DNA from: Candidatus Woesearchaeota archaeon
GTDB lineage: Archaea > Nanobdellota > Nanobdellia > SCGC-AAA011-G17 > ARS1178
NCBI GenBank assembly: GCA_964367025.1
Contig: CAYIWE010000001.1
Coordinates: 1 to 38,157 of the forward strand
Length of the DNA: 38,157 nt
Direction: 5' to 3'
This document shows, piece after piece, positions 3,018 through 34,546 of the stretch. Within the stretch, counting starts at the first letter, position 1, and the number at the start of each line of letters is the position of its first letter. The notes below the pieces were generated by a model that made no database searches, had not been told where the DNA came from, and saw only the letters and a program-made list of their open reading frames with translations. Position numbers and translations under genes: made by a program.

Positions 3018-3358
3018 TTTTTAGATGGGTCTATTAAGAAACCTCGTTTTAAAATATTTTTACCTAATAATAGTTTGTATTTCATGTTTTGCCTATTTGA
3101 TAAATTAAATCTTGCTTTGATCTTTTTATTTTTTATAACTATTGTTGCCTTTATTATTGGTCTTACAGATTTACCTTCACTAGAGATTATTTTTTTTGTA
3201 TCTAAAATCGGGCCTAATTGTAATTCTGAGGCCAAATGTATGTCCATTGAGCTTATATCCGCTCCAGTATCTATTTTTGCTGAGACCTCTTTTTCTTTTA
3301 TGCCTATGACTTTAACTCTTTCTATTAAACCAATGGTTTTTTTTTCATTGTTATCCAT
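3014..3358 (-). CDS. Retropepsin-like aspartic protease domain protein (RimK-associated family)
   Basis: 114 aa with the D-T-G signature KIDTGADISSMD. It is translationally coupled (4-nt overlap at 3014-3017) to the downstream ATP-grasp gene. From memory this matches the COG4067-type family that partners RimK. Confidence 0.7.
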   Translation of the reverse strand: MDNNEKKTIGLIERVKVIGIKEKEVSAKIDTGADISSMDIHLASELQLGPILDTKKIISSEGKSVRPIIKATIVIKNKKIKARFNLSNRQNMKYKLLLGKNILKRGFLIDPSKK

Positions 3359-9417: not shown

Positions 9418-9596
9418 CGCCGAGGCTGGGACTTTCAGACTTTTTAGTGAAGTTTTTTCCTAAAAAAGTTCATTCGAACCCAGATACCCCGAAGGGAACA
9501 GGCTTTCTATCAATCTGGCTCAAGGCTTACACACCCTTTTCCGTGAACGCTTTTCTTAAAAGGGTTCTGCGCAATACCAGATTATGCGACCTCGGC
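9418..9596 (-). tRNA. tRNA-Ser(UGA) with three predicted introns
   Basis: Acceptor stem GCCGAGG/CCUCGGC with discriminator G73. D-arm GCAU-AAUCUGGUA-UUGC. The anticodon arm CAG[intron ~9566-9527]GC-CUUGAG[intron ~9518-9505]A-GCCUG gives stem CAGGC/GCCUG and anticodon UGA. Long variable arm CCC-UUCG-GGG. T-arm CUGGG-UUCGAA[intron ~9472-9432]U-CCCAG. A TATA-like CTTTAAAAATA lies about 25-33 nt upstream. Junctions are accurate to about 2 nt. Confidence 0.68.
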
Positions 9597-14430: not shown

Positions 14431-14571
14431 TGGGCCCGGTGAGACTTCCTATAATCTAATGCTGATACAAGCCCTAGTTCTTATGTTCGAACTCACGACC
14501 TTTTGGCCTTAATTTTGTGATTAAGTCCACCATGTCAAGGTGACGTCATAGCCAGACTAGACCACGGGCCC
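14431..14571 (-). tRNA. tRNA-Val(GAC) with two non-canonical introns (variable region and T-loop)
   Basis: Acceptor stem GGGCCCG/CGGGCCC with discriminator A73. D-arm GUCU..UGAC. Anticodon arm UCACC-UUGACAU-GGUGG. A 25-nt insertion (~14525-14501) lies between position 43/44 and GGUC. T-arm GUGAG-UUCGAA[~14485-14445]U-CUCAC. Confidence 0.72.
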
Positions 14572-14574
14572 AAA

Positions 14575-14690
14575 AGCCTCAGGAGGGAGTTGAACCCCCG
14601 ACCTATTGCTTTCTTATTGTTTTTTTGGTGAAACTTTTTACCAAAAAAGGTTTTACAAGGCAATTGCTCTACCAACTGAGCTACTGAGGC
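14575..14690 (-). tRNA. tRNA-Thr(UGU) with a canonical 37/38 intron
   Basis: GCCUCAG-UA-GCUC-AGUUGGUA-GAGC-A-AUUGC-CUUGUA[intron ~14653-14611]A-GCAAU-AGGUC-GGGGG-UUCAACU-CCCUC-CUGAGGC-U. It lies 3 nt upstream of tRNA-Val. Confidence 0.85.
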
Positions 14691-17677: not shown

Positions 17678-17828
17678 AGCCCCGTAGTGTAGCGGTCAAA
17701 TAATCCTACCTCTTTTTTGAATAGGATAGACAAATCATGGTGCCCTTTGGAGGCATCGACGGAGGTTCGAATATAAGGATTGCATCCTTATCAACCTGCA
17801 ATCTTTTAAGGAAATCCTCCCGGGGCTA
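17678..17828 (+). tRNA. tRNA-Gln(UUG) with two non-canonical introns (D-loop and T-loop)
   Basis: Acceptor stem AGCCCCG/CGGGGCU with discriminator A73. D-arm GUGU-AGCGGUCAAA[intron ~17701-17734]UCAU. Anticodon arm GUGCC-CUUUGGA-GGCAU. T-arm GGAGG-UUCGAA[intron ~17772-17814]U-CCUCC. TATA-like TTTTTAAAA lies about 30 nt upstream. Confidence 0.74.
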
Positions 17829-21370: not shown

Positions 21371-23317
<1,947 letters not shown>

Positions 23318-34204: not shown

Positions 34205-34287
34205 ATATCTCTATTTTGATTGGTGATTTTTAAATTTTTGGGTAATAAAAAGGTTTAAATAGGTTTTTTGGTTTTTTAGGTTTTAAT

Positions 34288-34477
34288 GGGTCGGTAGCTC
34301 AAAAATAAGAAGAATCTCTTCTATTTGGCAAAGCCTGGGAGAGCACTACGCTGAAGATGATCTCATTGGCATTCCTAATGTCAAAGAGGAAATTTGACAC
34401 GTAGGCGTCGTGGGTTCAAAAATAAGGGTTGCACCCTATCAACCCGCAACTTTTGTTAGAAAATCCCGCCCGACCCA
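34288..34477 (+). tRNA. tRNA-Phe(GAA) with three predicted introns (D-loop, canonical 37/38, T-loop)
   Basis: Acceptor stem GGGUCGG/CCGACCC with discriminator A73. D-arm GCUC-A[intron ~34302-34332]GCCUGGGA-GAGC. Anticodon arm CUACG-CUGAAG[intron ~34357-34398]A-CGUAG. Variable region GCGUC. T-arm GUGGG-UUCAAA[intron ~34421-34463]U-CCCGC. TATA-like TTTAAATA lies about 30 nt upstream. Confidence 0.74.
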
Positions 34478-34546
34478 GTTTCTTTTTGATTTCTTAACTA
34501 AATCATTATACTCTGTATTCTTATATTCTGTTAATACTTACATTTA

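Follow-up and report, generated by a model that had tools for sequence, protein, structure and literature searches.

A tRNA-Phe(GAA) gene with three introns, very probably functional, in a woesearchaeote whose tRNA genes are widely interrupted

Transfer RNA genes with several introns have been described in the Thermoproteales (Sugahara et al. 2007, 2008, cited in PMC4033280 and PMC8450103), where many genes are interrupted and the junctions take relaxed forms of the bulge-helix-bulge (BHB) motif. These sources give three introns per tRNA gene as the described archaeal maximum (PMC4033280, PMC8450103) and Pyrobaculum calidifontis as the record, with 71 introns in 46 tRNA genes (1.54 per gene), set against means of 0.84 introns per tRNA gene for Thermoproteales and 0.21 for archaea (PMC8450103). 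Transposition of tRNA introns in the Thermoproteales, as far as it is summarized in PMC4090602 and PMC4033280 (Fujishima et al. 2010), has left near-identical introns at different positions in unrelated genes. The T-loop site 59/60 is an EndA-type junction in the permuted tRNAs of Thermofilum pendens, and is found with a BHB motif in those of both T. pendens and Cyanidioschyzon merolae (Chan et al. 2011, PMC3218864). The tRNA genes for Tyr and initiator Met in T. pendens are permuted at 59/60. For the DPANN archaea, Kaneta et al. (2018, PMC5829648) surveyed one Woesearchaeota and one Pacearchaeota genome, linked DPANN α4 enzymes to more tRNA gene disruption, and took incomplete predicted tRNA sets as a pointer to unidentified disrupted genes.

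Multi-intron tRNAs of archaea are therefore a known kind, already suspected in DPANN, and the tRNA-Phe(GAA) gene described here is a further case. It lies in a stretch of 38,157 nucleotides, here called the window, that comprises positions 1-38,157 of the forward strand of contig CAYIWE010000001.1 in assembly GCA_964367025.1 (Candidatus Woesearchaeota archaeon). Unlike the Thermoproteales, the organism belongs to the DPANN (Woesearchaeota/Nanoarchaeota), comes from mesophilic groundwater and has a G+C content of about 30%. The junction at 59/60 is shared with T. pendens and C. merolae, but the genes of those organisms are circularly permuted, whereas the genes reported here are colinear with an ordinary intron at this site. 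In addition, the earlier DPANN survey was based on tRNAscan-SE output, whereas the present analysis consists of a gene-by-gene census with splice junctions and of evidence that tRNA genes are under-called in 40 genomes belonging to the same order. We conclude that the locus is very probably the organism's functional tRNA-Phe(GAA) gene, the sole one in the assembly, and that its transcript would be spliced by the endonuclease EndA together with the ligase RtcB.

The gene occupies 190 nt of the plus strand (34288-34477), inside a 395-nt gap between two open reading frames, and its division into four exons and three introns is based on parsing, ARAGORN and orthologs. Exon 1 (34288-34301) contains the 5′ strand of the acceptor stem, U8, A9, the 5′ strand of the D-stem and A14. 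It is followed by intron 1, which is 31 nt long and interrupts the D-loop at 14/15 (34302-34332), and by exon 2 (34333-34356), which holds the remaining D-arm, position 26, the 5′ strand of the anticodon stem and loop positions 32-37. [quoted passage not shown] Exon 3 (34399-34420) runs from position 38 through the 3′ strand of the anticodon stem, the variable loop and the 5′ strand of the T-stem to T-loop positions 54-59, where the T-loop is interrupted at 59/60 by intron 3 (34421-34463, 43 nt), a member of a repeated T-loop intron family. Exon 4 (34464-34477) supplies position 60, the 3′ strands of the T-stem and acceptor stem, and the discriminator A73; all of these features lie on the plus strand. 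The acceptor stem is paired at seven of seven positions (bases 1-7 of the gene with bases 183-189, followed by the discriminator A), and the CCA end is absent from the gene sequence.

Joining the four exons gives a 74-nt product that ARAGORN recognizes as a canonical tRNA-Phe(gaa). Its D-stem has 4 bp, its anticodon loop 7 nt and its variable loop 5 nt, and its T-loop is of the standard form; the product keeps the identity features A73 and G18 G19. A sequence-only reading of this DNA had proposed that the gene collapses to a tRNA of about 74 nt once about 31, 42 and 43 nt are removed, and these sizes proved to be exact. The exons have a G+C content of 63.5%, the introns 34.5% and the window 30.2%. 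The cuts in the D-loop and T-loop can slide by 1-3 nt within A-runs at the junctions, leaving the spliced product unchanged; positions 14/15 and 59/60 were assigned from BHB geometry. A TATA-like box, with an A-rich BRE-like stretch immediately 5′ of it, is found 27-34 nt before position 1 (34254-34261, plus strand). The same box at the same spacing precedes both intron-less and interrupted tRNA genes of the genome, as well as the Phe genes of relatives, and it is the putative promoter. Directly 3′ of the gene, a T-rich tract read from the sequence (34479-34487, plus strand) is likely to act as an archaeal terminator.

Other identities for the inserts were considered. Group I or group II introns require a ribozyme core of hundreds of nucleotides, as against 31-43 nt here, and self-splicing was rejected; no Rfam intron family matches the window even at E = 10. 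A C/D-box guide RNA inside the anticodon intron was likewise rejected, as the boxes fail to match.

In the archaeal BHB motif, each strand comprises a flanking helix, a 4-nt central strand and a 3-nt bulge that is cut after its second base. Because of this layout, the six exon bases that precede the 5′ cut and the six that end the intron each consist of a 4-nt pairing segment and two bulge bases. At intron 1 of the Phe gene, three of the four central pairs form (G10, C11 and U12 with the 3′ end of the intron), adjoining a 5-bp inner helix that leads into a hairpin. At intron 2 the anticodon stem (5 bp) acts as the outer helix, and the central helix forms three of four pairs, one of them G-U, with one U-U mismatch. 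At intron 3 the T-stem serves as the outer helix, while positions 54-56 pair with the 3′ end of the intron. All three junctions take the relaxed BHB form (three of four pairs plus a 5-bp outer or inner helix) and none has the strict hBHBh′ motif; most junctions of the genome are relaxed, not strict. The minimum-energy fold of the whole precursor (z-score -4.2) keeps the acceptor, anticodon and T stems together with the T-loop motif, which appears in the unconstrained fold as the T-stem (5 bp) followed by helices of 3 bp and 12 bp, each preceded by a 3-nt bulge. The geometry of site 59/60 matches that of site 37/38, namely a 7-nt loop closed by a 5-bp stem, and from the T-loop architecture in the precursor fold, 59/60 is therefore a structural copy of 37/38.

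Across the genome, motifs were scored for 37 curated introns in 20 genes, the spliced products of which are recognized by ARAGORN in 20 of 20 cases, against random placements of equal lengths in the same genes. A central helix with at least three of four pairs is present at 36 of the 37 introns (27% of random placements), all four pairs at 19 (5%), and at least three central pairs combined with a flanking helix of at least 3 bp at 30 (4.6%), statistics that are partly circular since some registers were picked with the motif in mind.

The exons can be compared with uninterrupted genes. When the Phe gene was searched by BLAST against 40 genomes of the same order, exon 2 was matched in many of them. 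Among the loci fetched, six relatives carry an intron-less tRNA-Phe(GAA) that is uninterrupted across all three junctions, with a D-arm and anticodon arm identical or near-identical to the window exons; exon 2 agrees with the intron-less Phe gene of G004 at 26/26 nt. One relative has a 13-nt canonical intron in its Phe gene and another has an acceptor-stem intron, and in two genomes of the same family BLAST gave only a chance AT-rich match. The interrupted gene itself recurs on a separate contig, ERZ1292629 (Hainich well H43, 0.1-um fraction), which is identical at 291/291 aligned bases, introns included. This was the one contig found in a metagenome scan for the locus and, being identical to the window, it shows zero sequence variation. 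Gene finding relied on acceptor and T-arm seeds, followed by a cloverleaf-with-introns parser. On the reversed genome the scan and parser gave a best score of 60.4 and none of 66 or above, compared with 66.9-85 for the real genes.

Four other tRNA genes of the window were found by the acceptor and T-arm scan and parsed by hand, and their spliced products are all correctly typed by ARAGORN. The gene for tRNA-Ser(UGA) (9418-9596, minus strand) has introns at 9527-9566 (29/30, 40 nt), 9505-9518 (37/38, 14 nt) and 9432-9472 (59/60, 41 nt). That for tRNA-Val(GAC) (14431-14571, minus strand) is interrupted at 14502-14526 (43/44, 25 nt) and 14445-14485 (59/60, 41 nt), and that for tRNA-Thr(UGU) (14575-14690, minus strand) at 14611-14653 (37/38, 43 nt). 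The tRNA-Gln(UUG) gene (17678-17828, plus strand) carries introns at 17700-17734 (D-arm, 21/22, 35 nt) and 17772-17814 (59/60, 43 nt). Its D-arm junction is fixed by intron-less orthologs in G008 and G032, at this position the Gln gene of G038 carries another intron, and the U13-U22 mismatch of tRNA-Gln is common to the lineage. The least secure intron is the 14-nt intron of Ser(UGA), which has the weakest motif (two of four central pairs); its removal is required for a 7-nt anticodon loop. The sequence-only reading had counted three introns in Ser, two in Val, one in Thr, two in Gln and three in Phe (11 in five genes), with a T-loop site common to four of the five. Hand parsing and ARAGORN bear out the counts, and Ser, Val, Gln and Phe each have an intron of 41-43 nt at 59/60. 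Intact intron-less copies, which would speak against this reading, do not occur: none of the five isoacceptors has a second gene in the assembly. The Thr and Val genes (window 14571-14575) are spaced by just 3 nt, as are those for Asn and Ile (G000:C20:5622-5626), and both pairs are presumably co-transcribed from the promoter of the upstream gene.

The assembly, a metagenome bin that is 77% complete, comprises 80 contigs with a total of 628,886 bases. Our hand census identified 29 tRNA genes, which together contain at least 38 introns (at least 1.3 per gene): eight genes are intron-less, 20 are interrupted and complete, and one, for Leu, is truncated at a contig end. Twelve of the 21 interrupted genes have two or three introns, and there are three in each of the genes for Ser(UGA), Phe, Ser(GGA), Ile(GAU) and Ile(UAU). 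As the automatic parser allows at most one intron per arm, Ser(UGA), Gln, Ile(GAU), Ile(UAU) and Ser(GGA) were curated by hand with ARAGORN. Positions 37/38 or 38/39 account for 15 of the 37 curated introns and 59/60 for 11, plus the truncated Leu gene, which brings the genes with a T-loop intron to 12; the remainder lie at 29/30 (four), 30/31 (three), and 14/15, 21/22, 43/44 and 45/46 (one each). Unlike in the Thermoproteales, the single site 59/60 here holds about a third of all introns. The intron density of the window had been described from the sequence as near the upper range for archaea. With 2.2 introns per gene in the window and at least 1.3 in the genome, this description is fair in view of the published maximum, record and means, as given in PMC8450103 and PMC4033280: three per gene equals the described maximum, and the density of the genome is comparable with the Thermoproteales record of 1.54.

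A second Phe gene is absent from the 77% of the genome that is assembled, and a second scan seeded on intact D-arms revealed no further hidden tRNA genes. No method recovered genes for tRNA-Tyr or tRNA-Asp, and looking directly for anticodon arms of Tyr(GUA) and Asp(GUC) gave only noise. These genes may belong to the 23% of the genome that is not assembled; alternatively, they may be split, permuted or disrupted to a greater degree.

Many of these genes are overlooked by ordinary tRNA finders. With default settings, ARAGORN detects none of the five window genes and nine tRNAs in the genome. Its intron option raises this to one of five and 17, still short of the 29 in the hand census, and four of the 17 calls are assigned the wrong amino acid when compared with curated splicing. 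The Rfam tRNA model finds one of the five window genes even at E = 10 and 14 of 29 genome-wide, and no gene with a T-loop intron exceeds its threshold; tRNA-Thr(UGU) is the sole window tRNA caught by standard tools (Rfam RF00005, 60.8 bits). Across 40 relatives, the Rfam model finds 8-36 tRNAs per genome and never 40, even at 95-100% completeness. The systematic under-calling that had been anticipated for the lineage is thus seen with two tools, ARAGORN and the plain Rfam tRNA model. G040 (same order, 98% complete) and G015 (98% complete) yield only 8 and 15 tRNAs, respectively. Many copies of the T-loop intron module are present in G040, the tRNA genes of which may be more disrupted than those of G000, the genome described here. 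The training of the splice-motif models in tRNAscan-SE 2.0, which offers an intron-aware mode for archaea, drew on Crenarchaeota, Euryarchaeota and Thaumarchaeota (PMC8450103). For Woesearchaeales-like genomes, a plain covariance-model or ARAGORN search recovers about half of the tRNA genes and mistypes some of them, and claims that such DPANN genomes lack tRNAs, have a reduced capacity for decoding or use codons in an odd way are untrustworthy unless the tRNA set has undergone intron-aware curation.

Intron 3 of the Phe gene shows 84-91% identity to the T-loop introns in other tRNA genes. A common architecture is seen in ten T-loop introns, comprising a conserved start, a hairpin with a covarying stem, a conserved single-stranded block and an A-rich 3′ end, which forms the central helix of the splice motif. 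A pattern scan of species-representative genomes returned 60 matches, 36 of which are closed by a fitting T-stem strand, and nearly all of these 36 come from assemblies of Woesearchaeota, Nanoarchaeota or Pacearchaeota. A loose regular expression aimed at the hairpin of the introns returned mostly AT-rich noise and was not used. Paralogs elsewhere were found for 17 of the 37 curated introns, and none in the genome for the D-loop and anticodon introns of Phe. The T-loop hairpin module also occurs at 29/30 and 30/31, in inverted orientation in a His intron, and at non-tRNA sites. The His gene (G000:C32:4410-4533) carries the inverted module in a 52-nt intron at 37/38, an arrangement that fits DNA-level insertion better than RNA-level copying. 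Hairpins close to that of the T-loop intron number 13, six of them in tRNA genes, and the reversed-genome control has 0. The intergenic copies are located at 21394-21414 of the window and at C40:942-962, C39:3872-3892, C12:2224-2244, C33:1432-1452 and C4:12593-12613 of G000, often 20-45 nt before a start codon or right after a stop codon, and could represent a mobile element, a terminator or a promoter-proximal element.

The Ser(UGA) intron at 29/30 has as its core a second module, about 30 nt long. This module has 14 copies in the genome, 13 of them outside tRNA genes (including G000 C8:12611-12629, C2:13649-13667, C19:1934-1952 and 3190-3208, and C37:2405-2423), compared with one in the control, and many copies at 90-97% identity are present in other families of the order. 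It often precedes another small palindrome, and the copy on C2 has an identical 17-nt stretch, including a start codon, on both sides. In the gene for an ATP-dependent DNA ligase (G000:C21:5794-7518, minus strand, locus L039), the second module forms an in-frame insertion of 12 residues, which is absent from six aligned relatives; the Pyrococcus furiosus ligase has a gap of 16 residues over the region. A BHB intron in the ligase mRNA was rejected, as no placement restores the ortholog sequence. Since no BHB placement excises it, the insertion is probably translated.

A spread of repeat modules of this kind would resemble that of the palindromic elements of Rickettsia. Near-identical introns in unrelated genes and at different positions also recall the Thermoproteales, but the modules here are in addition intergenic, inverted, and in-frame in a protein gene, features for which we found no report in the parts of PMC4090602 and PMC4033280 that deal with Thermoproteales introns. 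Much of the intron load may have arisen by DNA-level insertion of genome-wide palindromic modules that survive in tRNA genes only at sites EndA can cut, an idea that we put forward tentatively and at somewhat less than even chances. If true, it would provide a concrete route of arrival for archaeal tRNA introns, along with a plain-looking α4 enzyme of broad specificity. The introns of the repeat family provide a case in which intron gain can be traced.

Splicing enzymes are encoded in the genome. A single gene on contig C18 matches the EndA families PF01974 and PF02778; its 182-aa frame has the catalytic Tyr, His and Lys, and its best structure match is the catalytic subunit of Nanoarchaeum equitans EndA (1.3e-37). 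The protein is without the 6-residue insert found in the N. equitans subunit between the catalytic Tyr and His, and aligns without gaps to the strict α4 enzyme of Methanocaldococcus jannaschii. A sensitive search of all reading frames of the genome revealed no EndA paralog or second subunit, and exactly one PF01974 gene is present in 28 of 30 relatives that are at least 90% complete. On subunit count and on the insert near the catalytic His, the protein falls outside the broad-specificity classes ((αβ)2 or ε2); Crenarchaeota have an (αβ)2 EndA with a specific loop, in contrast to the single α-type gene of this genome. RtcB is encoded on contig C40 (PF01139 match). Homologs with 64-70% identity carry the names Woesearchaeota or Nanoarchaeia in their source records. 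The intron density had been taken to imply strong dependence on a permissive splicing endonuclease. Such dependence is plausible, and a reasonable deduction from a single α-type EndA, RtcB and mostly relaxed junctions, but the EndA sequence shows no obvious basis for permissiveness. With a near-record intron density, a dominant T-loop site and a strict-looking α4 EndA, the organism is a good system for tests of substrate range.

From these components, we infer the following course for the Phe transcript. An ordinary TATA-type promoter would give rise to a precursor of about 190 nt, in which each intron and its flanking exon would fold into a relaxed BHB motif. A 4-nt exon segment ending 2 nt before the 5′ cut would pair with a 4-nt segment ending 2 nt before the 3′ end of the intron, the outer helix being contributed by the anticodon stem or T-stem and the inner helix by the intron hairpin. 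The single α-type EndA would cut both bulges and RtcB would ligate the exons to form the 74-nt tRNA, to which CCA would be added after exon joining. The Phe gene is one instance of an interrupted state that is genome-wide and lineage-wide.

The locus could instead be a dead gene, disabled by insertions of dispersed repeats, with Phe decoding provided by a copy in unassembled DNA. The repeat family of the T-loop insert is indeed found outside tRNA genes as well, and almost a quarter of the genome is missing, but the exons are intact and near-identical to functional-looking orthologs, the promoter is intact, and the boundaries of the inserts match splice motifs far above chance. The same state is seen in 20 other genes covering most amino acids, all of which would then be dead; moreover, relatives that are at least 95% complete are also left short of full tRNA sets by a plain covariance-model search. 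We consider a dead gene very unlikely. An artefact of assembly or binning, as might be feared in a fragmented metagenome bin of 80 contigs, deserves almost no credence: the independent contig is identical over its 291 aligned bases with every intron included, the inserts lie at motif-compatible sites in 20 genes, and the T-loop intron type is present in dozens of other Woesearchaeota and Nanoarchaeota assemblies.

A different objection concerns the enzymes, in that the inserts might be removed or tolerated by some route other than EndA and RtcB, for example by an unknown nuclease acting on the intron hairpins or by retention of the T-loop insert. The resemblance of EndA to the strict α4 type, which has none of the known specificity loops, would be in keeping with such a route, as would the conserved blocks that T-loop introns hold beyond the needs of the splice motif. 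However, EndA geometry is present at junctions of every position class. Contact between the T-loop and D-loop is needed by every tRNA, and a 43-nt insert in the T-loop would disrupt it. Site 59/60 is already an EndA-type junction in the permuted tRNAs of T. pendens (PMC3218864), and DPANN α4 enzymes have previously been linked to disrupted tRNA genes (PMC5829648). A route of this kind therefore appears highly improbable, and splicing of a functional tRNA-Phe precursor by EndA and RtcB is the reading that we favour.

Two further genes of the census bear on decoding. The tRNA-Leu gene at G000:C8:12642-12768 has the anticodon AAG (A34) once its T-loop intron is removed; to our knowledge, A34 is unusual in archaea, where G34 is the rule. 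A tRNA-Ile gene with the anticodon UAU and three introns is found at G000:C48:3598-3773, which suggests that AUA is decoded by a UAU tRNA in this genome, as is known from N. equitans and Korarchaeum.
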